Shown here: positions 914 to 62,316 of the stretch, in pieces | Layout of the letters: each line of letters begins with the position of its first letter | Numbering within the stretch: the first letter of the stretch is position 1 | Assembly (NCBI GenBank): GCA_963830935.1 | Contig: CAWHOC010000005.1 | Location: 38,023 to 102,022, forward strand | Reading direction: 5' to 3' | Length of the DNA: 64,000 nucleotides | From: an uncultured bacterium | GTDB taxonomy: Bacteria > Patescibacteriota > Minisyncoccia > UBA6257 > 2-01-FULL-56-20 | Notes under the pieces: model-generated | The model's input: the letters and a program-made list of their open reading frames with translations, nothing else | Told to the model about the DNA's origin: nothing | Database searches by the model: none | Translations under genes and position numbers: made by a program

Positions 914-1363
914 TCAATGGAATCGACGAGGGTCGGCTGGTGCTCGATCTCTTTGAGCACCAGCTTCAGGTTCGCGCGGATCTCCGCCACTTTCGGCGCC
1001 GGCACAATAAGCGAGAGCGCCGGCCGGATGCGCGAGCGGAAATAGAACGACCACATCCGCCCATTCCCCGTCGTCCAGGTCCGCGCTCCAGCTCTCGAAC
1101 TCCTTCATGGAGTATGACTTGTATCCCCCGATATTGAGCTCGGTGTCCGTCAGCGTAAACGTGAGCGTTCTCGGCGCCTTGTTCCCCCACACGATGAAAA
1201 GCATTTCCGCGATCACAATGAAAAAGCCGAATAGAAAATCTTTCTGCCACACCGAGAACGCGATGATGAGCGCGGCAGCGATGATGGAGATCCAATACCA
1301 CGAGACCTCCTTCTCGCGATACTCGAATTCCGGCGCCTCCCATGTTGTTTCGAACTTTGCCAT
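914..1363 (-). CDS. hypothetical membrane protein
   Basis: Track ORF with N-terminal hydrophobic segments (WYWISIIAAALIIAFSVW, FLFGFFIVIAEMLFIVWG). The C-terminal 50 aa look like read-through and may not be real. Confidence 0.4.
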   Translation of the reverse strand: MAKFETTWEAPEFEYREKEVSWYWISIIAAALIIAFSVWQKDFLFGFFIVIAEMLFIVWGNKAPRTLTFTLTDTELNIGGYKSYSMKEFESWSADLDDGEWADVVVLFPLAHPAGALAYCAGAESGGDPREPEAGAQRDRAPADPRRFH

Positions 1364-1378
1364 GATCCTATTTTACCA

Positions 1379-1915
1379 CTATTCTTTTCTGAATCCCATC
1401 AGTGGCTTATCGTCTTCCTCCGGCGGTGGCCCCATCAGCTGTTTTAGAACCTCAAACACGATTTTAAATTTTTTATCGTAATTCTTTTCCATTTCCATCA
1501 CCTTTTCCGCCAGCTCCTTATTACTGGCCAATAATTGGCGCAAACGGACGAACGTCCGTATGATAGCGATGTTCACCGCCACCGCGCGATCGCTCCGCAG
1601 GACACTTGATAACATTGCCACGCCCTGCTCGGTAAAAGCATAGGGCATATATTTGATGTTTTCGCCTTGCTTCAAGGTCGCAATTTGCGACCTTGAATGG
1701 AAAATTTTAGCCTCTTCCACGCTTAACTGAAACATAAAATCATCAGGGAATCGCTCTTAATTCCTTTTTACCGCTTCATTGAGCCGTTTGGTTGGTACGC
1801 GATACAATTCCGCCAAATCATAATCTGTCATGACCTTGCGCCCTCTTATTATAAATATCCGCCGCTCGATGATATCAAGCGGAATCACCATATTCTCATC
1901 TTTTAAATTTTCCAT
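1379..1915 (-). pseudogene. ORF6N (KilA-N/antirepressor-like) DNA-binding domain protein interrupted by an in-frame TAA
   Basis: The N-terminal piece (MENLKDENMVIPLDIIERRIFIIRGRKVMTDYDLAELYRVPTKRLNEAVKRN*) and the track ORF 1379..1735 (ERFPDDFMFQLSVEEAKIF...RSQIATLKQGENIKYMPYAFTEQGVAMLSSVLRSDRAV) are in the same frame, separated only by TAA at about 1757-1759. Together they match the ORF6N domain pattern. Confidence 0.6.
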
Positions 1916-1951
1916 AACCGGATTATTACACGACCCACATTAAATCATTCT

Positions 1952-1990
1952 AAAACTTGAAGTCACAGATTGTGACTTCAAGTTTTTTGA
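1952..1990. terminator. bidirectional rho-independent terminator-like hairpin
   Basis: aaacttgaagtcaca-gat-tgtgacttcaagtttttt: a 15-bp stem with a 3-nt loop, flanked by A and T runs on both sides. Confidence 0.5.
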
Positions 1991-2043
1991 GATCGCACAT
2001 TGCGACCCCAAACACGCCTCACCCCCACATCTGCGTACGCCCC

Positions 2044-2082
2044 AACACAAAAACGACCGCCTCACGCGGTCGTCTCTGTTCT
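2044..2082 (-). terminator. rho-independent terminator downstream of hup
   Basis: On the minus strand: gacgaccgc-gtgag-gcggtcgt followed by tttttgtgtt, immediately 3' of hup. Confidence 0.4.
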
Positions 2083-2114
2083 TAAGATACTGAAGAAGGA
2101 TCCTTTTTCAGCAA

Positions 2115-2390
2115 TTACAGCACTGCTTCCTTGAGAAGCTTTCCGGCGCGGAACTTCGGTTTGATCGAAGCCTTGATCTGGATCTTTTCGCCGGTCTTGG
2201 GGTTGCGGCCTTCGCGCGCTGCGCGCTTGGCGACGCGGAACGTACCGAAGCCCGTGATCGCGACTTCCTCGCCGCGGCCCATGGTCTTTACGATCGTATC
2301 AAACACCGCATCTACTGCCCTCTCCGCGGCCGCCTTCGTCTCGATGCCGGTGGCCTTCTGAACCGCTTCCACTAATCCTTTTTTATTCAT
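2115..2390 (-). CDS. hup: DNA-binding protein HU
   Basis: 91 aa, MNKKGLVEAV...GFGTFRVAKRAAREGRNPKTGEKIQIKASIKPKFRAGKLLKEAV. This is the canonical HU/IHF fold sequence. Confidence 0.9.
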   Translation of the reverse strand: MNKKGLVEAVQKATGIETKAAAERAVDAVFDTIVKTMGRGEEVAITGFGTFRVAKRAAREGRNPKTGEKIQIKASIKPKFRAGKLLKEAVL

Positions 2391-2810
2391 GATGATGATA
2401 ATTAGTTTATTTCGCGACCTTTTGTGCTTTTAGCTCCCCTTTAGTATAGCAAAATCAGGGTTTTCTTGCACAAGGGGCGTCAAGCGGGTTATTAAATAAT
2501 GATTAAAAGGAATTTGACGCCTATATGAGATTTGCTATCCTTTTATTAAGATAGGTTTCCTGATTTTTCTCTTGATGGCAGAAAGGCGACACTGCGGGCG
2601 CCGGGGAGATCCCGGTGATCGATGAGGGAACTGCCGCCCCTCCAAGAGAAAAATGAGGAAGCCTATTTTATTTCTCGATATTGCCCCCTCAGCTTCTTTT
2701 CTGGACGATAATAGCAATTAAAAACGCTCTTGGCGCTCCCGTGAGGATCATAGACCACGATCAGCGCCTCATGCTCCTTCCGCGCCCACAATCGCTTATA
2801 TTTACTGATT

Positions 2811-3932
2811 TTACAAAAGCGCGTCAAGATAATTTTTGCGATTGATGACTTGAAAAGATGCATCGGGATATGATTCGCGCCATGAAGCCGGCGGGGATGA
2901 GCGGGCCTCCGACCACTTACATTCGATTGCCGCAAGTGCTCCGTTTGATTCCTTAATGATGTCCACTTCTTGCCCGGCATGCGTTCTCCAGAAATAATAC
3001 GAATCGGATGCGCCTTCGATGGAACTTTTTTTTACCAACTCCATAAAAACGAAATTCTCCCAAAGAGCGCCGATGTCGTTGCGCAAAGCGAGTGGGTTGA
3101 ACTGCGCGATCACCGCATTGCGCACGCCATTATCAAGAAAATAATATTTTGACTTTTTCGATATTTCATTCCGCAAGTTGCGGCTGAATCCCCTGATCCT
3201 TTTGATGATGAACATTTTTTCCAAAAGATCGATGTATTTCGCAGCGGTCTTTGCATCCGTTCTCGCCGTGCGGGCAACTTCATTAATGGACACTTCGTTT
3301 CCCATCTGAAACGCAAGGCACTTTACGATATCAAGGAGTGTATCGGGAGACCGCACCGCCTCGAGCGCGAGCGCGTCCTTAAAAAGATATGACGAAATGA
3401 GCTCGCTCAAAATCTTCCTTTTTCTATCCACATCAGGTTCGTTTAACACTTCCGGGTATGAGCCATAGATGAGGAACCGTTCAAGATCGCCCTCAAGCTC
3501 AAAGCGGCTGCCTTCCATTTCTCCTTGCGAAAACGGCAGAAGGGTCAGCGTAAAATGGCGACCGGTCAAAGGTTCTCCCACTTTGTTGGATAAATCGAAA
3601 GAAGACGATCCTGTCAGGATGATATTTTTTTCAGGGAAGGCGTCTATCATCATTTTTGCCCCAAGCCCGATTGAGGGAATGGATTGCGCCTCATCAATAG
3701 CGATAATGTCGTACGGGCTGGCGAAGTCAAGGATTCCGTTTCGATCTTCGGACTGAAAGATATTGCGCAAACGGATATCATCGCCAGTCGAAGAAAAAAC
3801 GTTTTTGCCCGACTGTGTTTTTAAATATTCGCCGAGTAATGTTGTCTTTCCCACTCTCCGTGGTCCATAAACAACCAAAACTCTCTTTGGTTCCAAAGCC
3901 TCGACAATATTCTGCTTTCTCTTAAATTTCAT
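2811..3932 (-). CDS. AAA+ ATPase (COG1373-like, AAA_14 + DUF4143)
   Basis: Walker A YGPRRVGKTT, Walker B IIAIDEAQ, and a C-terminal DUF4143-like region (FFLDNG...YFWR...EVDII). Confidence 0.75.
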   Translation of the reverse strand: MKFKRKQNIVEALEPKRVLVVYGPRRVGKTTLLGEYLKTQSGKNVFSSTGDDIRLRNIFQSEDRNGILDFASPYDIIAIDEAQSIPSIGLGAKMMIDAFPEKNIILTGSSSFDLSNKVGEPLTGRHFTLTLLPFSQGEMEGSRFELEGDLERFLIYGSYPEVLNEPDVDRKRKILSELISSYLFKDALALEAVRSPDTLLDIVKCLAFQMGNEVSINEVARTARTDAKTAAKYIDLLEKMFIIKRIRGFSRNLRNEISKKSKYYFLDNGVRNAVIAQFNPLALRNDIGALWENFVFMELVKKSSIEGASDSYYFWRTHAGQEVDIIKESNGALAAIECKWSEARSSPPASWRESYPDASFQVINRKNYLDALL

Positions 3933-43629: not shown

Positions 43630-45219
43630 TTATTTTCGGATGACCCGATATTCGGGATGCACCTCGAGCGGCAGGTCCTTGAACCGCGCAACGAGCGCCG
43701 GGACTTCGGGCGCGATGAATCCCCACTGCTTTACGAACGCGACTGCCTTCGCGTAATCCCCCTCCAGCTGCACCTTCACAAACTCTTCGCCGAGCGCGAT
43801 CATCGCCGCGAGCGTCTTCGTGGGATCGATGTCAAAGAATCCCGTAGCCTCGTCGTACCGCACCGCACCGTAATGCGTGAGCCAGTTGTATTCAATGAGC
43901 GACCCCGCGGAATGCGCCTCGGTGTAACTCGTGCGCCATCCCGCCACCAAGCTCGCAACCTCGTACACGGCGCACATTTCGAGCTCGTCGCGAGTCAGCA
44001 ATCCTTTTTTGTAAAAATAGTCGAGCAACGCGACGCCCACCATATCCGCCTTCGCTTCTTCAAGCATGGAATGGAGGTCTTTCAATAGAATTTCAAAACT
44101 TACTTCCCTGCCATCCACCTCCCGCACGCCCGGACCGATACCATGCGCAAGCTCGTGGCCAAGAACAAAAAGCATTCTGTGCCGTTGTTCGCATTTTTTC
44201 AAAATATCGGGGGCAAGAAGTCGCTCAACAATGGGGCGCGTGAGCATGGAAAACTTCGCATCCATCATTGTTTTTGAAAAAACCTTCTTTGAACCCTTCA
44301 CTTCGTGGATCCTACGATCGTTCGGAAGATTATACGCGACGAATTGTCTGCCAAACGCCGCTTCGCCGCCGCGGTAGATGTCGCGGGCGACGACCATCGG
44401 CGTCGCGTTATTTTTCGCCTTATATCCCAAGCGCGCCGCAAGTATCGCGTCAAACTCCGGCAGCGCCGCCACAAATTTTTCCATCTCCGCAGTCGCCGCT
44501 TTGTCCGGCAGGGCGACGAACGCCTCAAACGTCGCCTTAATGCCGAACAATCCGTCCGCGTACACCTCGTACGGACCGATCGTCACCTCGAACGGCTGGC
44601 CCGTGGTATCCACCCACGCGACATCACTCTCCCAATAATCGTTCGAAAGGAACGCGGCGGCGCGCAGCATGAGAAATTTTTTGAGAGGTCCTGCGGGCAA
44701 AAGCGCCGCCGCGCTTTTGAGCTCGGCCGACGCCGCTTCCAAAAACTGTTTATATTCCACGCTATACGGAACGGCAACGAGGCCGGCGGCGGCGTCCGCG
44801 CCTCTCTTTATAATAGTGGTGCGGCTTTCAAAACTTTCCCGATCGGCGGAATGCGCCACCAGCCACTCGTTCCATTCTTTCTCAGTAAGGTCGGCGGGGT
44901 AGAATGAGGCCGCCTTTGGCTTCGGCCCGACGCCGGAGATGAATGGCTTGTCTCCGTCAAAGCCGTCCCACGGCCCACCGTTCACATTGAAATATTTAAA
45001 AAGGTCCTTGCCTTCCTCGTCGGTGCGCGCGGCGAGCGCGGCGAGCGAGGCGCGCAGTTCCAGATTCTTGGGATCCATCTGGAGCAGATAGATGTCGGTC
45101 ATGATCTCCGCGGCGCGCACGCAATGGCGCAACGCTTCGCGCTCATTGTCCGAGAGGCCGGACAGGTCTTGCGCGGCGTCAAAAAACACTATTTTCCTGA
45201 GCGATTGTTTTATATTCAT
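43630..45219 (-). CDS. zinc metallopeptidase (HExxH; DPP III / M49-like)
   Basis: FVLGHELAHGIGPG (HExxH) and a downstream EEAKAD second motif. 529 aa. Confidence 0.5.
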   Translation of the reverse strand: MNIKQSLRKIVFFDAAQDLSGLSDNEREALRHCVRAAEIMTDIYLLQMDPKNLELRASLAALAARTDEEGKDLFKYFNVNGGPWDGFDGDKPFISGVGPKPKAASFYPADLTEKEWNEWLVAHSADRESFESRTTIIKRGADAAAGLVAVPYSVEYKQFLEAASAELKSAAALLPAGPLKKFLMLRAAAFLSNDYWESDVAWVDTTGQPFEVTIGPYEVYADGLFGIKATFEAFVALPDKAATAEMEKFVAALPEFDAILAARLGYKAKNNATPMVVARDIYRGGEAAFGRQFVAYNLPNDRRIHEVKGSKKVFSKTMMDAKFSMLTRPIVERLLAPDILKKCEQRHRMLFVLGHELAHGIGPGVREVDGREVSFEILLKDLHSMLEEAKADMVGVALLDYFYKKGLLTRDELEMCAVYEVASLVAGWRTSYTEAHSAGSLIEYNWLTHYGAVRYDEATGFFDIDPTKTLAAMIALGEEFVKVQLEGDYAKAVAFVKQWGFIAPEVPALVARFKDLPLEVHPEYRVIRK

Positions 45220-45821
45220 CTCCCCGGCAGGATGAAGTGTTCGCGACAGCGCGGCTCGTACGATTCTCCCGGCATCTTGATCGGGCTGTCGAACGGAGCG
45301 GGTTGACCATCAATGAGCCGCTGAGAGAACAATGCCTGCGCGCCGCACGAGCAGTACGAGACGCACCAGCTGATCGCGCCGCCGTAATAGTTAACGAGCC
45401 ACGTGAGCCCCAGCATATCGCCGAACGGGATCGCGCGAAAATCGAGGTCGAGCCCCGCCACGAGCACGTCGTACCCCGACTCCATCAGGTCTTTCGTAAA
45501 AAGGAAAAGGCCGTCCACGAACTGGCCTTCGTCGATCGCGATCGATTCCACTTTCTTGCCGATGTTCTTCTCCTCCGCCGCGACGCACTTCATGATGCTC
45601 CACGGATCGCTCGATTTGAACTCGAGCGCTTGCATCTTGCCGTGTCCGTGCGGATTGCGGCTCGTGACGAGCCCAGGCGCGCTCTTTGTATCGTCGCTCG
45701 GCTTGAAGAGCATCACGCTCTGGTGCGCGAACTCGCGGCGCATCGCCACGCGGCGCAAGAGCTCCTCCGTCTTGTTACTCCGCATCGGCCCCATCAGCAG
45801 TTCCAATTTCCCCTTCTGCAT
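45216..45821 (-). CDS. tdk: thymidine kinase
   Basis: GPMRSNKTEELLRR (P-loop) and a C-terminal Zn ribbon (CVSYCSCGAQALFSQRL...CREHF). Confidence 0.85.
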   Translation of the reverse strand: MQKGKLELLMGPMRSNKTEELLRRVAMRREFAHQSVMLFKPSDDTKSAPGLVTSRNPHGHGKMQALEFKSSDPWSIMKCVAAEEKNIGKKVESIAIDEGQFVDGLFLFTKDLMESGYDVLVAGLDLDFRAIPFGDMLGLTWLVNYYGGAISWCVSYCSCGAQALFSQRLIDGQPAPFDSPIKMPGESYEPRCREHFILPGR

Positions 45822-45883
45822 ACCTCACAGTCTATCGCGAAGGGAGGGAATGTCAAAAGATAGAAAAACCCTGTAGACAACTA

Positions 45884-45925
45884 GTTTACAACTTTGAATT
45901 TCTAATATACACTAAAGTTGTAAAC
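45884..45925. promoter_or_regulatory. 12-bp perfect inverted repeat 3 nt upstream of the start codon
   Basis: gtttacaacttt - N18 - aaagttgtaaac, ending 3 nt before the ATG at 45928. A candidate operator or translational control hairpin. Confidence 0.35.
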
Positions 45926-45927
45926 AA

Positions 45928-46986
45928 ATGAACCCCATAAAACAAAAGGTTTTCGATATCATCAAGTCCGAAAGGGAAGTTAAAGCGAGCCGCCTTGAAG
46001 GCCGACTTAACGTCAGCCGACAATATCTCCACAGGTTTCTGAAAGAGTTACGCGAAGAGGGCAAGATCGCCCTTTTGGGAAAAGCAAATCGGGCCGTGTA
46101 TGTCTTTGCGAATAAAGAGGCCTTACTTACTGCACGAAAAAAAATAAAGAAATTCCATCGTTTCCTGCATAATAAAGATATTTCCGAAGATATCGTTCTC
46201 GATTCTATAAAACGTGATTCGGGAATCTTCATCGACGTGCCCGAGGACATCGGCCGCATACTCAACTACGCATTCACCGAAATGATGAACAACGCCATAG
46301 AACATTCTCGATCGAGAGAGATCGAGGTCCTCATGATGCGTGACAGGTCTTATATTCGTTTCGAGATCACCGACTCGGGAATTGGAATATTCCATCATAT
46401 TATGGCAACACGCCATCTGCGGAATGAGCTGGAAGCGATACAAGACCTCCTGAAAGGAAAACAAACAACCGATCCCCAACACCATACCGGGGAAGGGATT
46501 TTTTTTACATCAAAAGTCGCCGACGCATTTACTATAAAAAGTTCTACCAAGGAATTAACTTTTAATAACCTTATCGACGACGTATTTGTCCGGGATATCA
46601 AGAATCGTAGAGGTACCAAAGTGACATTTACGATTGCTATTGATTCATCCAGAGATCTGCAGGAGGTTTTTGGTGAATATAGCACGAGTTCATACGAATT
46701 CGATAAAACCAAGGTTGCAGTACGGTTATATAAAACGGGAACTCTTTATATTTCCCGTTCCCAAGCCCGCAGAATCATGACTGGTCTTGAGAAATTTAAA
46801 ACCGTCATCTTGGATTTCTCGCATATTAAATCGGCTGGCCAAGGATTTGCCGATGAGATATTCCGCGTATGGAGAATTCATAATCCGGAAGTGAAAGTGG
46901 AGGCCATCAACACCAATGAAAATATTGACTTCATGATAAAACGAGCCCTTAAGGAAGGAGCGAAAACTCAACAGGGACTTTTTTAG
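45928..46986 (+). CDS. wHTH + GHKL (HATPase_c, RsbW-like) + C-terminal STAS-like (DUF4325-like) domain protein
   Basis: The N-terminus QKVFDIIKSEREVKASRLEGRLNVSRQYLHRFLKELREEGKI is a winged HTH. The middle region IFIDVPEDIGRILNYAFTEMMNNAIEHS...ITDSGIGI is a GHKL N-box/G-box. The C-terminus ...TVILDFSHIKSAGQGFADEIF is STAS-like. Confidence 0.55.
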   Translation: MNPIKQKVFDIIKSEREVKASRLEGRLNVSRQYLHRFLKELREEGKIALLGKANRAVYVFANKEALLTARKKIKKFHRFLHNKDISEDIVLDSIKRDSGIFIDVPEDIGRILNYAFTEMMNNAIEHSRSREIEVLMMRDRSYIRFEITDSGIGIFHHIMATRHLRNELEAIQDLLKGKQTTDPQHHTGEGIFFTSKVADAFTIKSSTKELTFNNLIDDVFVRDIKNRRGTKVTFTIAIDSSRDLQEVFGEYSTSSYEFDKTKVAVRLYKTGTLYISRSQARRIMTGLEKFKTVILDFSHIKSAGQGFADEIFRVWRIHNPEVKVEAINTNENIDFMIKRALKEGAKTQQGLF

Positions 46987-47284
46987 AATTTAGGAGAAAA
47001 ACTTGCGCGTGCCATAGTTCTCTTGTTATCTCCTTCCGTTCAATACTTCTCTCTCCACGAACCCAATCCCCTTCAAATGCTAATGCCCCCTCAGGGCCAT
47101 CCACGCTCTCTCTTGGCTCATCGCGAAGATCAATTCCTTCATTAAAATTTCCCTGATTCATAACAAAACTTTATCTCTGTTTTACTTTAAATACAATCCA
47201 AAGTTTGCCATTCCGCTCAACTCCCCTGTTTTCTCAAAATCCGGCAAACTCAAAAAACTCAATATCCATAGGGATATCAAGCTA

Positions 47285-48148
47285 TTATGGCTTGGCTAAA
47301 ACAAAAAGCGACTGGCCGTTATTCACGTCTCGATCCTTAGGAAATCCAATAAATCGCTCTTTTAGAATAATGAAGCCTGCCTTTTTAAAAACCTCCGCCC
47401 ATTCCTCAAGGGTCCGAAATCCAAATGGCATCGGAATATTTCTGCGTCCCGCGAGAACCCTATTGGCAATCCAATCAAATGCACTCATGACTTTCATTTT
47501 ACCCTGTTTATCCAGCGCCATAAATCGGCTATAAATGGCCTTTCCTTGTTCCGGTCGCAACTTTTCACTATAAGAATCCTCGAGTACAACGAGCCGTGAT
47601 CCGGATTTCAAAGTGTTAAATATGACTCTCAGATATTCTTCTTGCTCGACATAATTCATATGGTGTAACACCCACGTCATCACTACTGAGTCCGGCACTT
47701 CCTTTTTCATAAAAGTTTCAAACTCGCTCTCTGCGACAACTGCGGTTTTTATACCAAGGCCGTTCAGTTCATTCCAAGCAGGATATAAATTAACATCAAT
47801 CCCAATAAGCGTGCCGCCTCCCCTCTTAATCAACTCTTTTAGAAGTGTTCCCGTGCCACATCCAAGATCTAAAATCTTCCCATCCTGAGGAACTTCCGGG
47901 ACTACATACTTCTCAAATAATTTACCCGCCAATTCGCCAAGAAAATGTACTGTCTGGCACTGATAAAGCTCCTCGGCATGTTGCGTCGAATATTGTTCGC
48001 ACCCTCCATTTTTTATGGCTATGAATAGATCACTGATGAGCCCAGCTGGATAGCCAATATCCGAAAGAGATTGTGTAAGACTGTTCTCAATAAAAGAATT
48101 GAGAGCCGGACCAAGGACGATATCTTGGATGATATTTTCACCTTCCAT
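47285..48148 (-). CDS. class I SAM-dependent methyltransferase
   Basis: ILDLGCGTGTL (motif I) and a downstream acidic motif II. Confidence 0.7.
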   Translation of the reverse strand: MEGENIIQDIVLGPALNSFIENSLTQSLSDIGYPAGLISDLFIAIKNGGCEQYSTQHAEELYQCQTVHFLGELAGKLFEKYVVPEVPQDGKILDLGCGTGTLLKELIKRGGGTLIGIDVNLYPAWNELNGLGIKTAVVAESEFETFMKKEVPDSVVMTWVLHHMNYVEQEEYLRVIFNTLKSGSRLVVLEDSYSEKLRPEQGKAIYSRFMALDKQGKMKVMSAFDWIANRVLAGRRNIPMPFGFRTLEEWAEVFKKAGFIILKERFIGFPKDRDVNNGQSLFVLAKP

Positions 48149-48197
48149 AAAGGCATTATAACAAAGACTTGAGATGATAGGCGGCCAAAATGACCAT

Positions 48198-48215
48198 CTG
48201 TGGAAGCGGGCGGAA
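48198..48215. repeat. 18-bp direct repeat of the tmRNA 3' end (att-like)
   Basis: ctgtggaagcgggcggaa is identical to 48413-48430, i.e. the tmRNA T-stem 3' strand + acceptor 3' strand + 3 nt beyond. Confidence 0.6.
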
Positions 48216-48337
48216 GCTCACGCGCTCACTGCGTTCGCTTTTGAGAACCCTCGGTTCTCAATACTCTCCTACACGGGAGGGGCAGCCTGCCCCTCCCGAC
48301 CCCACCCCTCTCGTTCGATTCCCGTCTGCATCGAGCA

Positions 48338-48413
48338 GCAAGAAAACAAAAACAGGCATATTCGCCGAACGGTCCATCTTCGGGAGGCGAATATGCTGTT
48401 TTTGTTTTCTTGC
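48338..48413. repeat. 27-bp-stem hairpin immediately 3' of the tmRNA gene
   Basis: gcaagaaaacaaaaacaggcatattcgcc - 20-nt loop - ggcgaatatgctgtttttgttttcttgc. Located between the tmRNA 3' end and the att-like repeat, near a 25-bp perfect palindrome cgggaggggcag-c-ctgcccctcccg at about 48274-48298. Confidence 0.5.
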
Positions 48414-48415
48414 TG

Positions 48416-48732
48416 TGGAAGCGGGCGGAATCGAACCGCCGTGTAAAGATAATGCCGATGGGCCGTCTACGAGTGTAGTTTAGCTAGGCTAAGCGAAGTG
48501 ATCATATTTTCGCGCCGGGCGTATGATCGTCAACCTGGCGCTAGTCCCCTTATATAAGACCGGTATCAGTCCAAGGAACCCGGACCGGCCGATCCCGAAG
48601 GGCTAGGCGTAAGCCAGAGCGAACTTCGGAGCTGCAACTTTGGAGTTGGCAGTTATAGGTTGTGCAACAATAACGACGTTGCCAACGACTCGCAAACCCA
48701 TGGATTATCTTTATCGAAGCCAATGCGCTCCC
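48416..48732 (-). ncRNA. ssrA: tmRNA (ssrA)
   Basis: Minus-strand 5' end GGGAGCG-CATTG-GCTTCGAT (tmRNA consensus GGGGnnGnnnnGGnUUCGAC...). The 3' end GGCGG-TTCGATT-CCGCC-CGCTTCC-A is a T-arm with an acceptor that pairs with the 5' end. About 317 nt. Candidate tag ORF ...GCC AAC TCC AAA GTT GCA GCT CCG AAG TTC GCT CTG GCT TAC GCC TAG (ANSKVAAPKFALAYA*). Confidence 0.75.
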
Positions 48733-48856
48733 AGCGCAAGCGGCGTGCCATAAGGCAGCCCCTATTATACCACGGCGCATGGTAGAATAAAAGGGTACAA
48801 AAACGCAGCGCGAAAGGTCGAAGAAATTTGATTTAATCAATTTTTAATCTCTATTT

Positions 48857-49069
48857 ATGGAAGAAACACATGTAATGCCCGGCAAGGGCATGACCTGCAA
48901 GTGCCCGCATCACAAAGCGATACCAGTACTCATCATCCTCATCGGTTTGGACTTCCTTTTGGGAGCGACGGGAACCCTCTCATGGAACTTCGTTGACGTC
49001 ACCTGGCCGATCCTCTTGATGATCGGCGGCATCGTGAAGCTGGTCCGCTGCGGCTGCTGCAGCAAGTAA
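48857..49069 (+). CDS. small membrane protein with C-terminal CGCC motif
   Basis: 70 aa with two hydrophobic helices (AIPVLIILIGLDFLLGA; WPILLMIGGIVKLV), ending ...VRCGCCSK. Confidence 0.4.
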   Translation: MEETHVMPGKGMTCKCPHHKAIPVLIILIGLDFLLGATGTLSWNFVDVTWPILLMIGGIVKLVRCGCCSK

Positions 49070-49071
49070 AT

Positions 49072-49172
49072 AAAAACAGTCCGTCATTGTCTCGTTCCGA
49101 CGTAGCGACCGCAGGAAGTCCCGCGGGAGGACGTCCACTCGCTCGACAACAACGGACTGTTTTTATTTTTGT
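49072..49172 (+). terminator. large structured terminator-like element (10-bp outer stem enclosing about 60 nt, then a T-run)
   Basis: aacagtccgt ... acggactgtt followed by tttatttttg. The interior contains the palindrome tcccgcggga. Confidence 0.45.
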
Positions 49173-49223
49173 GGCGTGGGAGATTCGGGGGCTTCTTCTG
49201 TGACTTTCTGGATGTTGGCGCGC

Positions 49224-49768
49224 TTAAGCAATTCCGCCTGCATCCATTCCGGCGAGGTCTTTGTCGAGTGCGGGAAGGATTCCTTCCGTATCGTCGTCGC
49301 CCGGCTTCTCGTTGTCTTCATGGCCGGCGGTCAGGATGACGATGCGGGAGAGGCCAAGCATCTGAAACGAAATGTCGCGCCGGATGTCGACATCCTGGAT
49401 CTGCCGGTATGGGATCGCCACTTCCTCTTTGTTCAAGATCCCGCGCTTTATTTTCAATGAATCATCTCCGAGGCAGTATTTGTAATTCGCGTAGATGAGC
49501 CACGCGACGAGGAATGTGATGAGGAGTGCCGACGATAAAAAGCGCGAGTGCGAGCCATGCGCCGAGCATCGTGTATGCGCGTCAAGTCGCCGATCGGCGT
49601 CGTGACGAGGAACGATTGCCCGCCGAGGGCGAAGAGCACGATCGTGAGCAAAAGCAAAACGAACGCGGCATGGACACGCTCCAGGAAAAATATCCAGAAC
49701 GTCTTCTTCCCCATGGTGTGGTAGACATCTTCGGGGACGCCGGGATGGGTTATTGGATTCTCGTCCAT
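49224..49768 (-). CDS. bacterial PH-domain (bPH_2/DUF304, YdbS/YdbT-like) membrane protein, frameshifted
   Basis: The 49454..49768 ORF has the N-terminal TM pair (FWIFFLERVHAAFVLLLLTIVLFALGG). The 49224..49457 ORF (TTG start) has GILNKEEVAIPYRQIQDVDIRRDISFQMLGLSRIVILTAG, a bPH_2 core. Confidence 0.5.
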
Positions 49769-49806
49769 TTTGATTATTCTACCACAGCTGATATAATGGA
49801 GGCATT

Positions 49807-50309
49807 ATTAAGCCCCGCATCAACAATCAAATAACCGCACCGGAGCTCCGCGTCATCGGCGAAAAGGGAGAGAATCTTGGCGTCATGCCGCGCGCCGACG
49901 CGCTCGCGCTCGCCCGCCCGGACGACGGCATCGACCTGATAGAGATCTCCGCTCCGCGACGCCGCCCGTCGTGCGCCTGATGAGCTACGACAAGTTCCGC
50001 TACGAGGAAGAAAAACGGATCAAGAAGGAGCGCGCCGCGCAGAAGACCGCGTCCATGAAGGCCGTGCAGATCACGGCAAAGGCCGCGCATAACGACCTGA
50101 TGGTCAAAGTGCGCCAAGTGGAAAAATTCTTTGCCGAAGGACATCCCGTGGAGGTCGTCATGCGCCTGCGCGGCCGCGAAAAGCGCAACAAGGATTGGGC
50201 GATGGAAAAACTGAAAGAATTTTTGACGCTGATTCCCGTGGAATACAAGAAGCTCAACGAGCCGCGTTTTTTGGGCAACGGCCCGGCCGTGCAGATCGCG
50301 AAGAAATAA
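49807..50309 (+). CDS. infC: translation initiation factor IF-3, probable AUU start, frameshift in a C-run near 49960
   Basis: The frame opening after TAA at about 49795 reads (ATT)(ATT)[51 protein letters not shown], which is the IF3 N-domain, with no ATG. Track ORF 49971..50309 = [16 protein letters not shown]...[14 protein letters not shown]... is the IF3 C-domain. The junction cgacgccgcccgtc would be in frame with one extra C. Confidence 0.8.
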
Positions 50310-52612: not shown

Positions 52613-54403
52613 TTATTTCTTTTTTAAAAACGCCAACATTTTTTCGAGAGGCCACGCGTTGACGATATCTTTGCGCTCCGCCCAGCCGCGGCGCGCCTGC
52701 GCGATGCCGCATTCGAGGAATGCGAAGTGCGCCACGGCGTGCGCGTCCGAATCGATGCTCATCTTCACTTCGGCCTCCACACACTTGCGGATGTGCTCAT
52801 CTTTGAGATCGCTGCGCTCGGGAAGCGCGTCGATCTCCATGATCGTGCCGGTCTTCTTTGCCGTCGCTGATGATCTCGTCAATATCGATATCGATCGGCG
52901 GCCGCTTGTTGATGAGTCGTCCGGTGGGATGGAAGAGTATGTCCACGTGCGGGTTCGATATCGCGCGAACGACGCGTGCGGTCTGTTCCGCGCGCGGTAA
53001 AGTAAAGAACGAGTGCACCGACACACCGACGACATCCAGTTTTGAAAGCGTCTCGTCATCCAAGTCGAGCGTGCCGTCTTTCAAAATATCGCACTCGGTG
53101 CCTTTCAATATTTTTATTTTGCCCGCCAGTTTTTTGTTGACCGCGTCGATCTCTTTCCATTGCGCGCGGATGCGTTTTTCGTCGAGGCCGTGCGTCATCG
53201 CAAGGCGCTTCGTATGATCCGTGATCACGATATACTTCAGCCCGCGCGCGGCGGCGGCTTTGGCCATCGCTTCAATAGAATCGGCGCCATCGGTCCAGTT
53301 GGTCTGCGTTTGGAGATCACCTTGGAGATCACCGTAGCCGATCAGCTTCGGCAGGCCAGGTTTCTTCGTTCGAACTCGCGATCGCGGCCTGCACTTCGCC
53401 GGTGTTCTCGCGCAATTCCGGCTCTGGGTATGCCATGCTTTAATGCTTTATAAACGTCTTCTTCCGTGCGGCCTGCCACGCGCGTGCCCTCCTGCTCCGC
53501 GCCTTTTTTGGTAGCCCTTTTTTGATCTTGAAGAGGCCGTACTCGTTGAGCGTGAGGCCGAGGTCGTTCGCGCGCTTGCGGATCACGACGTTGTGATCTT
53601 TGGAGCCGGTAAAATAGTTGAGCGCGGCGCCGTAACGACTCCGCCGGCACGACGCGCAAGTCGATGTTCAGTCCCGGCGTACTTTGATCGATGACTTCGT
53701 CGGACCTTTCGCGATGACCGTCATGATGCCGGCGATCTTCGTCGATAAAATAATCCATGATCGCTTCGGGTTTGGATGGACACGGCAAGGATGTCGAGAT
53801 CGCCCATCGTTTCCTTCCGCCGCCGCGCGGAACCGGCGACGGTCACCTTTGAAACGCCCGGCACGCTCGCCGATGCCGCTTCTCAAGGTTGCGCACTCGA
53901 TTAAACATGTAACCGATGATGAACCGCACGCCCGAGCCCTTCGCAAACTCGATCCCTTTCAAAATCTTCTCCTCGCTCTTTTTGCCGAATCCTTCAAGCA
54001 CACCGATCTTCCCCTTCTTCGCGGCGGCCTCGAGGTCTTTCAGATTCTTCACGCCGAGTTCTTGATATAACTTCTGGATGGATTTTGGCCCGAGCCCTTC
54101 CACGCGGGCGAGCTCGTCCAGGCGCACCGGCGTTGCCTTCTTCAACTTTTCATATTCCGTACTGCGCCCTTTCGTCACAAGCTCCTCTATTATCTCCGCG
54201 ATGGACTGTCCCACGCCGGGAATTTCTTTCAGCGCCTTGATACCGCCGCGCGCGTAGATTGCCGACACTTCTTCCTCTAGCGCGCCCACCGTCTCCGCCG
54301 CCTTCTCAAACGCGCGCGGCTTGAATTGCACGTGTTGCATCTCTAAATATTCGCCGATCTGGCGCAGGACTTCGGAGACGGATTGATTTGAGGCGGACAT
54401 CAT
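52613..54403 (-). CDS. DNA polymerase X family with C-terminal PHP domain, fragmented by at least 4 frameshifts
   Basis: 53843..54403 has the N-terminal HhH/8-kDa and fingers region ([13 protein letters not shown]..., [22 protein letters not shown]). 53342..53788 has the palm ([10 protein letters not shown]...). 52797..53267 and 52613..53059 carry the PHP motifs ([24 protein letters not shown]). Confidence 0.75.
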
Positions 54404-54406
54404 TTA

Positions 54407-55399
54407 TTAATTTGCACTACAAGTAACATTACTGCACAATATCCCCGTTTTGGCGTTATATGATTTATTCAATGAGGAACCCTGTATATTCACATTCCAT
54501 ACTGGTGCGCCGTTATATACATTCAAACTAACATATAATGAAATACTAGAATTACCATTAAGTGCCGTCTTGAGATACTCTAGTCCCCCGGTAGACATAA
54601 ATTCATTAACTACTTCTGACGAACCAATCGTCCATGGAGGTATTTCTGTTTCAAATCCCTGAGCAATAGGGGGAGTGGCAGTATATTGGTCGGGAACTGT
54701 TCCTCCATTATCATTCCACGCATATCCAATTCCATCGGTAGCGGTTGTCGGAAAATAAAATCCGTAAGTCCTCTGAATGCCCTGAAATGAACCTATAGTG
54801 CAACGATAATCCAGTTGGGTGAGAGCGCCATTCGTGGCATCCAAATGATAATTTTCCATTATATTTTTTAATGCGCCGGCAATGTTTGCCATATCTTGCG
54901 AATAAGTTTGCCCTAATGAGTCACATACTGAGATAGACGCACTCGTGTCCGGGGTTGCTACGATCTCCGTTTTAACCGTTGGAGCGGGGAAAACCCATCC
55001 TGTCCAGGCGAACGAAGCCCCATAAACAATGACTGAAGAAATAATAATTACCCCGATGGCACCGACCACTCTTACCCAAGACCGAATACTTTCCGATGTC
55101 AAAACCGCGAGAGGGATTGCAGGCGAGATGAGTAAAACACAAATTGGGAAAAGAATAATAAAAAGGAGCCCTCCTACCCCCTGAGCGCCATTGGGACCCA
55201 AAGAGTTTACGAGTTCCACAAAGACCATGAGGATGGCCGTTATAATAATACCGACCTCCGAAGCCCTCAATAGAGGGAGGGTTTCTTTATGCCTTTTTGC
55301 GAAAATATAGAAAGCAAGAATAGTAATGCCGTAGCCTAAAATAAAACTTATGGCGAGACCATCCCAAGAAAAAGCTCCCATTAGCTTGAATAATAACAC
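54407..55399 (-). CDS. membrane protein with large extracytoplasmic C-terminal domain, function unknown
   Basis: About 5 N-terminal TM helices, then a T/S/N/G-rich domain. AT-rich 3' half. Confidence 0.4.
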   Translation of the reverse strand: MLLFKLMGAFSWDGLAISFILGYGITILAFYIFAKRHKETLPLLRASEVGIIITAILMVFVELVNSLGPNGAQGVGGLLFIILFPICVLLISPAIPLAVLTSESIRSWVRVVGAIGVIIISSVIVYGASFAWTGWVFPAPTVKTEIVATPDTSASISVCDSLGQTYSQDMANIAGALKNIMENYHLDATNGALTQLDYRCTIGSFQGIQRTYGFYFPTTATDGIGYAWNDNGGTVPDQYTATPPIAQGFETEIPPWTIGSSEVVNEFMSTGGLEYLKTALNGNSSISLYVSLNVYNGAPVWNVNIQGSSLNKSYNAKTGILCSNVTCSAN

Positions 55400-60851: not shown

Positions 60852-61404
60852 TTTGTGAATTCTTTATGTATCTTTTCCCGGAGACGTAGCGCCGCCACCC
60901 GCAGCGTTCCTTCCGGTTTCTCAAGGATGTGTGCGATGTCTTTATAGGACATCTCTGCGGCAAAGCGCAACTCGAACAATTCCTGTTCTTCGGGCGTGAA
61001 TGTGCCGACGACCAACCGTAAGCGGCGATAGGCCAGCACATTGTCCGTGTCGGGGATCTCCCCCACCGCCATTCCGGCGACCTCGTCATCTTCGAATTGT
61101 GAAAATGGCACGGCTTTCTTTTGGCGATAGTGATCGATGAGCGTGTTGCGCGCCATCCGCCAGAACCATACCGTGAATCTGCCTTTCTTGGGGTCGAAAC
61201 TGCCGACGCGCTCGATGAGCTTTATGAAAATTTCCTGCGAAAGATCTTCCGCGGCTTCCCGGGATCCGGTGCGCGAAAAGATGAACCCATAGAGCTTGGC
61301 GGCAAGCTCATCGTACAGCGCTGCCCGCGGCCGTCCGGTCGCCTTTCTGCATCTTGATCACAAGGCGGTCGAGGCGGTCTCGCTGTATGTCTTTGAGTTC
61401 CATA
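60848..61404 (-). CDS. ECF (sigma-70 family) RNA polymerase sigma factor, frameshifted near 61320
   Basis: Track ORF 60848..61156 is region 4 (...YKDIAHILEKPEGTLRVAALRLREKI). Upstream, in another frame, is region 2 (AALYDELAAKLYGFIFSRTGSREAAEDLSQEIFIKLIERVGSFDPKKGRFTVWFWRMARN), preceded by MELKDIQRDRLDRLVIKMQKGD. Confidence 0.7.
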
Positions 61405-61554
61405 AAGTGGTACGTAGTAGGCGCTTTTTTGTTACTCAAATCTTACCACGCTAATCGGCCAAGTGAAGCGTGATACTCTTTTTTAAATATACCATTTAGG
61501 GGATAAAAGGGTTCATTCCCCTACTAATAACGGCACAGCAAGAAAGGTGAAGTA

Positions 61555-62316
61555 CTAAGAATTTATAATTTTAAGCAATGTAGGATGCAAATAATTATTC
61601 GCGGCCAAAGCTTCTCTGTCTTTCAAGGACCATGGTTCGCCTTTAAAGTTCGTAACTTTGCATCCTGCCTCCGACAAGATTAGGGATGTGGGGGCATAAT
61701 CCCACAAACCGCCACCCCTTGAAACCCTCCAATCCCTCCTGCCGTCGGCTTGGTACATAGCGCTCACTCCACCAGATCCTAAAGCACTCACCCAAAAAAT
61801 TTCTTCCTTCGAATATTTCAAAAGTTTATCTATGACTACCGCATTCCTTTCCGACAGATTTGAGCTGATAAGACCCCAGCTATCTTTCCATGTTTTTTGT
61901 TTAGAACAGTGCACTTTTTTGTTGTTTAAAAAGGTACCCTTACCCTTTTGGGCAAAAAATAATTCATTTGTACATGGGTTGTAGACGGTTGCCATTTTCA
62001 TTTTATCGTTCCGAGCCAATCCGATCATCACGGCGAACATCGGCGTATGCGTAGAAAAATTTCTCGTCCCGTCCAAAGGATCAATAATCCAGCAATATTC
62101 TGCACCAACTTGATATTCGCCTGTCTCTTCGGAAATTATCGCATGATCTGGATACTTCTCCTTTATTGCATTTATTATTATTTTATTCGCGGTCAAATCA
62201 GCCTCGGTAACAACGTCAGTAGCATCTTTTTTTGTATATTTAACCCCAATCTTCCCAAATTTTTTTAGTATTGCGCCACCCGCCTTTTTAGTTATCTCTT
62301 TTATAAATTTTTCCAT
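61555..62316 (-). CDS. suhB: inositol monophosphatase family protein
   Basis: EETGE...WIIDPLDGTRNF is an IMPase motif, with a C-terminal WDYAP. The gene is AT-rich. Confidence 0.8.
   Translation of the reverse strand: MEKFIKEITKKAGGAILKKFGKIGVKYTKKDATDVVTEADLTANKIIINAIKEKYPDHAIISEETGEYQVGAEYCWIIDPLDGTRNFSTHTPMFAVMIGLARNDKMKMATVYNPCTNELFFAQKGKGTFLNNKKVHCSKQKTWKDSWGLISSNLSERNAVVIDKLLKYSKEEIFWVSALGSGGVSAMYQADGRRDWRVSRGGGLWDYAPTSLILSEAGCKVTNFKGEPWSLKDREALAANNYLHPTLLKIINS

Follow-up and report, generated by a model that had tools for sequence, protein, structure and literature searches.

A gene with its own operator array beside ssrA: a candidate self-repressing switch cassette in Patescibacteria

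What are two genes of foreign composition doing next to ssrA, and do they belong together? The question is raised by a locus in a 64-kb stretch of contig CAWHOC010000005.1 from an uncultured patescibacterium (hereafter the window, meaning the whole 64,000 nucleotides analysed). Open reading frame (ORF) A (45928–46986, + strand, 352 aa) and ORF B (47285–48148, − strand, 287 aa, an S-adenosylmethionine (SAM)-dependent methyltransferase) lie in convergent orientation between tdk, the thymidine kinase gene that forms the conserved left flank (45216–45821, − strand), and ssrA, the gene for transfer-messenger RNA (tmRNA). A reading made from the sequence alone had described two convergent genes of low G+C content (GC) in this place, and both the ORF coordinates and a trough in GC agree with it. 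We consider it reasonably probable that ORF A is a self-repressing switch cassette, that ORF B is a separate insertion and that the tdk–ssrA interval holding them is hypervariable. The analysis yields a predicted operator for nearly every member of the ORF A family, a putative and simple code relating the wing tip of the protein to its operator, and a single-chain form of partner-switching logic without the canonical phospho-serine. If the switch is real, it would be a compact, portable, ATP-gated repressor of programmable specificity.

A predicted operator array in front of ORF A

The sequence-only reading had pointed to a perfect 12-bp inverted repeat shortly before the ORF A start codon. 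The repeat is present: its arms, GTTTACAACTTT (45884–45895) and AAAGTTGTAAAC (45914–45925), are separated by an 18-nt spacer, and two bases (AA) precede the ATG at 45928. Since the repeat is kept with ORF A homologs in unrelated genomic contexts, it is more than a chance occurrence. It proved to be part of a three-site operator array lying over the promoter. Site 1, GTAGACAACT (45873–45882, + strand), was located by motif search at the 5' edge of the conserved cassette. Site 2 is the left arm of the repeat (+ strand) and holds the −35-like hexamer TTTACA (45885–45890), and site 3 is the right arm, which reads as a site on the − strand and lies over the predicted transcription start. Counted as 10-bp sites, the three occupy 45873–45882, 45884–45893 and 45916–45925; sites 1 and 2 are spaced by 11 bp, as in most family members. 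A promoter scan found the −10-like hexamer TACACT at 45908–45913 (+ strand), so that the promoter-like match TTTACA-17-TACACT (45885–45913) agrees with the consensus at 9 of 12 positions; homologs carry TATAAT-like hexamers in the same place. Transcription is predicted to start about 7 nt past the −10 element, giving a near-leaderless ORF A mRNA with no Shine-Dalgarno sequence.

The array recurs across the family. Almost all members have two to five copies of a 9–12-nt motif in the 110 nt before the start codon, and at least three copies of a 9-mer were present in this upstream region at 68 of 83 loci, compared with 18 of 230 control windows. The core of the motif is the −35-like TTGACA/TTTACA, and the spacings of 11, 21–22 and 31–33 bp are multiples of the helical turn. 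In the ACAACT clade, to which the window belongs, two direct sites 11 bp apart are followed by a TATAAT-like −10 element and then by an inverted site about 31–33 bp after site 2. In other clades, including the large ACAATT clade, all sites are direct repeats. As in autoregulated winged helix-turn-helix (wHTH) repressors, the ORF A sites coincide with a −35-like box and the predicted transcription start, on comparative evidence. The array differs from that of ArsR/MarR-type autoregulated repressors in consisting of two to five helically phased sites, direct or mixed, instead of one palindrome.

The sequence of the sites co-varies with the wing of the protein (residues 52–54). KAN-like wings go with ACAAC at 30 of 30 loci and xTR wings with ACAAT at 30 of 37; ACAAC is used at four xT-clade loci, each of which carries STA instead of STR, and xGR(W) wings go with ACATA. 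Fisher's test gives p 2.8e-16 for the association, with no correction for phylogeny. The predicted recognition code is thus N or A at residue 54 for ACAAC, R for ACAAT and GR(W) for ACATA. In the 774 kb of flanks sampled in a search for a regulon, single sites outside the gene's own promoter were at chance level (96 observed, about 89 expected). Because site sequence co-varies with the wing, the motif is found in the 64-kb window only in ORF A's own promoter, and isolated flank sites occur at chance, we strongly infer that ORF A is autoregulated through its own winged helix.

Clustered sites in the flanks have a different character: they belong to 3' or duplicated copies of the gene's own array. 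Extra arrays lie 1.3 kb upstream in L048 and 2.7 kb downstream in L022. In 8–9 genomes (L025, L026, L036, L037, L038, L041, L061, L083), a second full array begins 0–3 nt past the stop codon of the homolog, even where the next gene is convergent, and the ORF is then flanked by direct array copies about 1.1 kb apart. Two further loci, L023 and L046, carry two tandem upstream arrays, 111 and 97 nt apart respectively, without an intervening ORF. No 3' array is present in the window. The 3' and tandem arrays suggest looping, insulation or cassette boundaries as candidate roles.

On the tdk side, a promoter-like site for tdk (45856–45829, − strand) lies about 30 bp from the divergent ORF A site at 45885–45913 (+ strand). 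The segment 45822–45861, just before site 1, is still syntenic with L097, a related contig described below. Because the cassette starts right after the tdk promoter-like site, a protein bound at operator site 1 could affect tdk transcription as well.

Three domains in one chain

ORF A had been read as a partner-switching pair fused to a DNA-binding domain, and this interpretation holds at the fold level. The protein comprises a wHTH domain (residues ~1–60), an RsbW/SpoIIAB-like GHKL ATPase/kinase domain (~75–240) and a STAS-fold DUF4325 domain (~260–345). In Pfam searches, DUF4325, HATPase_c_2 and HATPase_c scored over their thresholds, with PF14213 (DUF4325) reaching 48.5 bits over residues 279–333 against a cut-off of 23, and HTH was slightly under. 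The N-terminal part has the winged-helix DNA-binding fold, and the middle part shows the Bergerat ATP-binding fold with its N box (ExxxNAxxH), G1 (DxGxG) and G2 (GxG) motifs. The C-terminal 98 residues, modelled alone (predicted local distance difference test (pLDDT) score 86) and submitted to a fold search, have the STAS alpha/beta fold; the matches were almost all STAS domains, including SLC26 STAS (7.6), RsbV (7.4), RsbR (7.4), RsbS (7.2) and SpoIIAA (6.6). Because the Pfam and fold searches concur, the assignment of wHTH, RsbW-like GHKL and STAS domains is correct at fold level. Below that level, hhalign found no detectable sequence similarity between the C-terminal domain and SpoIIAA as a classical STAS protein, a comparison without power, and a sequence-level search of solved structures with ORF A returned weak histidine-kinase matches only.

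In the 368 family members compared, the residues of the ATP-binding site show essentially no variation (E118, N121, N122, H126, D149xG151xG153, K176-G177-K178 and G188xG190). The STAS-like domain has its own invariant set, namely S276-R277-S278, A280, R282, D296-F297 and G304-Q305. By manual alignment, Q305, which follows the invariant G304, takes the helix-start position equivalent to SpoIIAA S58, and nearby S302 is Ser or Thr in 205 of the 368 members (56%). By topology, S276-R277-S278 and the G304-Q305 helix caps lie on a shared edge of the alpha/beta sheet.

The closest likeness is to the RsbW–RsbV and SpoIIAB–SpoIIAA systems, whose STAS fold is common to ORF A and whose members RsbV, RsbS, RsbR and SpoIIAA are among the top fold matches. 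Unlike these systems, ORF A fuses both partners in one chain behind a winged helix, adds the operator array to its DNA-binding domain, and shows an invariant SRSQAR motif but no conserved canonical phospho-serine. It also lacks a nearby sigma-factor gene: none was found beside ORF A, nor does one occur in the Pfam families seen most often in 135 genes directly adjoining its homologs, and no PP2C phosphatase partner was seen for ORF A. Rv1364c of Mycobacterium tuberculosis, which acts on SigF, is likewise a single-chain fusion (RsbU-, RsbW- and RsbV-like), but it contains PAS and PP2C domains and lacks one for DNA binding; ORF A, by contrast, includes a winged helix but no phosphatase and is the product of a mobile solitary gene. 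With regard to ArsR/MarR-type repressors, the sensor of ORF A is an ATP-binding kinase-like domain plus STAS domain instead of a metal or ligand pocket, and there is no adjacent regulated gene.

A mechanism can be proposed from these features. The winged helix of ORF A would bind the three 10-bp sites in its own promoter, and occupation of the two direct sites at and next to the −35 element and of the inverted site over the transcription start would occlude the promoter, resulting in self-repression. The protein would dimerise through its RsbW-like domain. ATP binding, hydrolysis or autophosphorylation may then alter docking of the STAS-like domain on the kinase domain of its own chain or of the other subunit of the dimer, and the altered docking would toggle DNA binding, which would amount to a partner switch inside one polypeptide. 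S276-R277-S278 and the G304-Q305 helix caps, instead of the canonical STAS serine, are the likely docking or acceptor surface.

A solitary gene and its possible roles

The unit that travels with the operator appears to be ORF A alone. Homologs with 80–88% identity have unrelated neighbourhoods (SBP and RNase J; a diversity-generating retroelement (DGR) and a Schlafen-like gene; a short-chain dehydrogenase and NT5C), and nucleotide homology among them extends from about 55 nt before the ATG to the stop codon. We therefore describe ORF A as a solitary cassette of about 1.1 kb (~45873–46994), made up of its own promoter/operator and one ORF. No conserved neighbour emerged from 74 homolog loci; the largest cluster, Fic/DOC, accounted for 7 of the 74 at varying positions. 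Most of the 135 genes immediately next to homologs have housekeeping roles (GidA, enolase, RNR, DnaE, LeuRS, RuvB), and about 11 of the 135 (~8%, a figure without a matched background rate) match defence-type models (SoFic 4, MADS 2, PbeA 2, and REase I, AbiEi and RT 1 each). Adjacency to tRNA or tmRNA genes was considered as a family trait and rejected; it occurred at about 7 of 60 loci, near chance. Near an 82%-identical homolog, L005:1726–4681 encodes bAvd and RVT_1 proteins, which resemble a DGR, and a Schlafen/AlbA_2-HATPase_c_4 protein.

Genomes of Patescibacteria, or Candidate Phyla Radiation (CPR) bacteria, encode few recognisable regulators. The ORF A family is among their more abundant uncharacterised DNA-binding proteins. 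More than 7,983 homologs were found in a protein collection, the listed ones all sharing the ORF A domains, and an exhaustive HMMER scan with the GHKL–STAS part gave at least 2,187 clusters at 50% identity. The best 150 of the cluster matches, of ~335–355 aa, have a single architecture with the GHKL–STAS part behind a domain of about 100 residues, and no other fusion of the GHKL–DUF4325 module was seen among the best 150 of the representative search. Carriers comprise at least 587 species-level genomes, mostly Patescibacteria. Homologs with 40–59% identity occur in Omnitrophota, Planctomycetota, Syntrophia and other deltaproteobacteria, Actinomycetota, Gammaproteobacteria, Melainabacteria, Ignavibacteria and Verrucomicrobiota. 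Public sources name these proteins 'DUF4325 domain-containing protein' or 'anti-sigma regulatory factor'. A literature search on DUF4325, PF14213 and GHKL plus STAS-like proteins found three passing mentions among 8 million papers and no functional study of the family; DUF4325 is a Pfam database label without assigned function.

Phages carry the gene too. Homologs with 30–55% identity were present on 43 predicted viral contigs; at 15 viral loci the homolog follows a phrog_36 regulator and lies immediately upstream of the small terminase gene, and at others it sits between tail genes and the Ant anti-repressor. The slot between the phrog_36 transcriptional regulator and the small terminase is fixed for phage-borne homologs of 33–35% identity (L132–L133, L140–L141, L145–L147, L149–L153 and others). 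Phage-borne homologs also have repeated upstream motifs, of AACTTTA and TAAAGTT types. Collections of cultured phages and plasmids gave no ORF A homolog.

Several points weigh against ORF A as a self-repressing switch. Promoter-like sites as a class were no commoner in the promoter scan than in shuffled sequence, and the match before ORF A is a weak one. Arrays placed after the stop codon are not explained by simple promoter occlusion. The wing–site statistic ignores phylogenetic non-independence, although the STA exceptions have the look of a switch made independently. No conserved phosphorylatable Ser or Thr was found among the 368 members at the N-terminus of alpha2 (the SpoIIAA S58 position), and the lack of this canonical STAS phospho-acceptor makes a classical switch by phosphorylation doubtful. 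Moreover, a regulator only of itself has no evident benefit, so that the proposal lacks an output, and it offers no means of movement for the cassette. A gene that is autonomous, carried by phages and spread across phyla may well serve a self-sufficient accessory or conflict function, but the protein has no effector domain and the neighbours of the gene are mostly housekeeping ones, which tempers that reading.

Such a function is at the centre of one alternative, which we rate as possible though not likely: ORF A would be an autonomous conflict module (anti-phage or abortive infection, superinfection exclusion, or addiction), its RsbW-like effector restrained by the STAS domain until a trigger, with the wHTH providing tight autorepression as in type II toxin–antitoxin systems. 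A solitary, self-promoted gene spread across phyla suits a function that needs no prior regulon, and the distant homologs occupy accessory-gene slots of phages. ORF A residues 111–313 match positions 139–357, an N-terminal segment, of the 1,750-position PADLOC model of DrmA from DISARM (PDLC02567, E 6.7e-6, a partial and weak match), so the GHKL–DUF4325 module may also be used in the DrmA defence helicase; the ~8% of neighbours with defence-type matches, the reported coupling of DUF4325 genes to PIN.4 nucleases (PMC5499597) and a DUF4325 gene in a Francisella prophage (PMC7924643) point the same way. However, no full system of PADLOC-DB v2 was matched and the locus has no partner genes, ORF A being unlike DrmA systems in lacking a helicase, DUF1998 or PLD partner; most homolog neighbours are housekeeping genes, the cultured phage and plasmid collections gave no match, and the protein has neither a nuclease, pore or NADase-type effector domain nor a known kinase target. 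If the conflict reading were true, ORF A would represent a new single-gene system that CPR bacteria share with other phyla and with phages. It is unlikely that ORF A is an ordinary one-component regulator of the host, acting for example in energy- or ATP-linked stress, with its regulon elsewhere and its autoregulation incidental. RsbW/SpoIIAB-type switches respond to the ATP/ADP ratio, which would fit such a role, as would the sequence-specific binding to which the operator arrays point, the extra arrays in L048 and L022, and the retention of ORF A's position in the closest strains (L166 and a contig in ENA). It is opposed by the chance-level occurrence of single sites in the 774 kb of flanks and the lack of any other site in the window, by the lack of a conserved neighbour or target gene, and by the absence of ORF A from the syntenic L097; cross-phylum spread and foreign codon composition are also unusual for the regulator of a host regulon.

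Three further possibilities are less probable than these. One extends the cassette idea to the arrays themselves: ORF A would be an autonomous single-gene mobile cassette whose product recognises the arrays marking its ends and loops or synapses them under an ATP-driven switch, giving tight self-silencing and possibly array-by-array excision and insertion, with the kinase domain contributing a conflict or defence activity as payload. We consider this improbable; the arrays are taken as cassette ends because they bracket the ORF in 8–9 genomes and because the ORF-less tandem arrays in two others resemble empty or scar sites. If true, it would account for the spread of a single gene that lacks a recombinase through phyla and phages alike. 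It is very improbable that ORF A and the methyltransferase are one acquired functional unit integrated at ssrA, as the two-gene block of the sequence-only reading implied. The genes are adjacent, convergent and equally low in GC and in GC at third codon positions (GC3), they lie beside ssrA with its att-like 18-nt repeat, and ORF B has a match, though a generic methyltransferase-domain one, to PADLOC mad2. Yet in L166, a contig of 335 kb that comes from a different sample, ORF A is present and the methyltransferase is missing, the difference being a clean 1,205-bp indel, which to a large extent refutes a single unit. Homologs of the two never adjoin (co-location in 0 of ~80 plus 5 contexts), ORF B resembles UbiG/O-methyltransferase-type enzymes and not DNA methyltransferases, no integrase is present, and both genes lie outside the 197 nt that the repeats bound. 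Finally, we give scarcely any credence to the 12-bp inverted repeat acting as a nucleic-acid hairpin (an attenuator, a bidirectional tdk terminator or a recombination site) instead of as protein sites. Its perfect 12-bp stem and 18-nt loop, ending 2 nt before the ATG, would be suited to this, but arm changes are uncompensated in close homologs (TTTACA versus TTGACA in L002; ACAACT versus ACGACT in L005), by our reading the arms are not complementary at about half of the loci in the ACAACT clade, the direct repeats of the ACAATT clade are unable to pair, and the left arm coincides with the −35 element, so it would not be transcribed from the gene's own promoter.

The interval between tdk and ssrA

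The comparison of GC and codon usage with other genes sets ORF A and ORF B apart. GC across ~45750–48000 is 0.39–0.44, against about 0.58–0.60 around it, and this trough is the deepest and longest of the window (1-kb minimum 0.406; mean 0.548, sd 0.046). GC3 is 0.459 in ORF A and 0.410 in ORF B, compared with 0.822 in tdk, 0.826 in Nramp, 0.687 in M49 and 0.770 in IF3. Because GC3 is 0.41–0.46 in the two genes and 0.69–0.83 in the flanking ones, the deviation lies in codon usage and goes beyond amino-acid content, and the composition is foreign. Low GC as a general proof of recent transfer was rejected for the family: gene GC is below flank GC at 66 of 74 homolog loci, with a median offset of −0.047 that follows host GC, and since the offset is family-wide and tracks the host it is partly intrinsic. 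Unlike this offset, the large GC3 gap in the window is strong evidence. Elsewhere in the window, 1-kb GC falls to 0.42–0.48 at about 1000–3500, 54000–55000 and 61000–62000, and these stretches may be more acquired segments.

Comparison with L166 resolves the interval into separate parts. L166 is 99.2% identical to the window over 45000–46994, ending 8 nt past the ORF A stop codon, and resumes at 48200 with 93.2% identity on the ssrA side (48200–50000). By blastn breakpoints, the segment absent from L166 is 46995–48199 (1,205 bp), containing the methyltransferase gene and about 290 nt. Its right junction is the distal copy (48198–48215) of an 18-nt direct repeat, CTGTGGAAGCGGGCGGAA, an att-like duplicate of the tmRNA 3' end; the proximal copy (48413–48430) is the last 18 nt of the tmRNA gene itself (48413–48732, − strand, Rfam 107.5 bits; 48415–48732 by ARAGORN). 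These are the two exact copies in the window, and 0 of 100 shuffles reached two matches. The step in identity from 99.2% to 93.2% indicates a recombination breakpoint at the repeat, and the indel carrying ORF B would have been inserted exactly at the att-like duplicate. No third, degenerate copy bounding the AT-rich block was found in the window with up to three mismatches, and CTGTAGA at 45871, considered as an att remnant, was rejected as part of the conserved operator.

Between the repeat copies lies a hairpin-rich spacer of 197 nt (48216–48412), present in L166 and not in L097. It contains a perfect 20-nt inverted repeat (48336–48355/48396–48415) with an inner stem and a perfect 12-nt one (48274–48285/48287–48298). 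The spacer is probably a remnant of an ssrA-targeted element, a tmRNA terminator, or both; alternatively, it may be an insert resembling a miniature inverted-repeat transposable element (MITE).

L097 is syntenic with the window (tmRNA 94% nucleotide identity, tdk 87%, M49 76%), and the genes past ssrA are conserved. Its tdk–ssrA interval holds about 8 kb of unrelated cargo (L097:1341–9372) and neither ORF A nor the methyltransferase. The cargo encodes a DUF4396 protein, an NHL-repeat pseudopilin-like protein, a HAD protein, a Tle3-like lipase fragment and a PMT-family glycosyltransferase. The pseudopilin-like protein, of 585 aa, has an N-terminal prepilin-type methylation motif and NHL/beta-propeller repeats encoded by internally repetitive DNA. 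A stretch of about 110 nt directly downstream of the L097 tmRNA matches window positions 47190–47300, beyond the methyltransferase and within the segment absent from L166. No tyrosine or serine integrase was found among the ORFs of 45822–48412 or in the 8-kb L097 interval.

Since L166 has ORF A only and homologs of each gene never adjoin the other, ORF A and ORF B appear to have been gained or lost independently in a hypervariable, recombination-prone interval. For strains that are 99% identical, the window shows cleanly how genes can be gained independently at a hotspot beside ssrA. The idea of cargo acquired at ssrA stands in part. Like ssrA-targeted islands, the locus has variable content downstream of ssrA, foreign composition and an 18-nt duplicate of the tmRNA 3' end; unlike them, it has no integrase, and the two repeat copies enclose no more than 197 nt, leaving ORF A and the methyltransferase outside, on the far side of the distal copy. 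The interval has the appearance of remnants, decayed or accreted, that recombination has reshuffled.

ORF B was expected to be a class I SAM-dependent methyltransferase with an extra N-terminal region, and it matches Methyltransf_23/11/31/25 in Pfam with about 80 additional N-terminal residues. Other family matches are UbiE and O-MT, and the nearest solved relatives are UbiG and O-methyltransferases (E ~1e-4). No DNA methyltransferase family was matched and no nuclease gene is adjacent. The family comprises 97 proteins, mainly from CPR, in unrelated contexts, and ORF B is best viewed as a small-molecule or O-methyltransferase type enzyme, unrelated to ORF A. A terminator-like hairpin with a T-run (47256–47283, − strand) lies directly past its stop codon, within the block shared with L097.

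A fourth arrangement is seen in L098:1–2411 (M49 71%, Nramp 90%), where a homolog 79% identical to ORF A immediately precedes M49 on the strand of that gene and tdk is missing; either the locus has been rearranged locally or a separate insertion has struck almost the same spot. The tmRNA tags of these close relatives differ C-terminally, being ANSKVAAPKFALAYA in the window, ANSKVAAPSFAFA in L166 (L166:11281–11601) and ANSKVAAPRAFAFA in L097 (L097:1026–1340).

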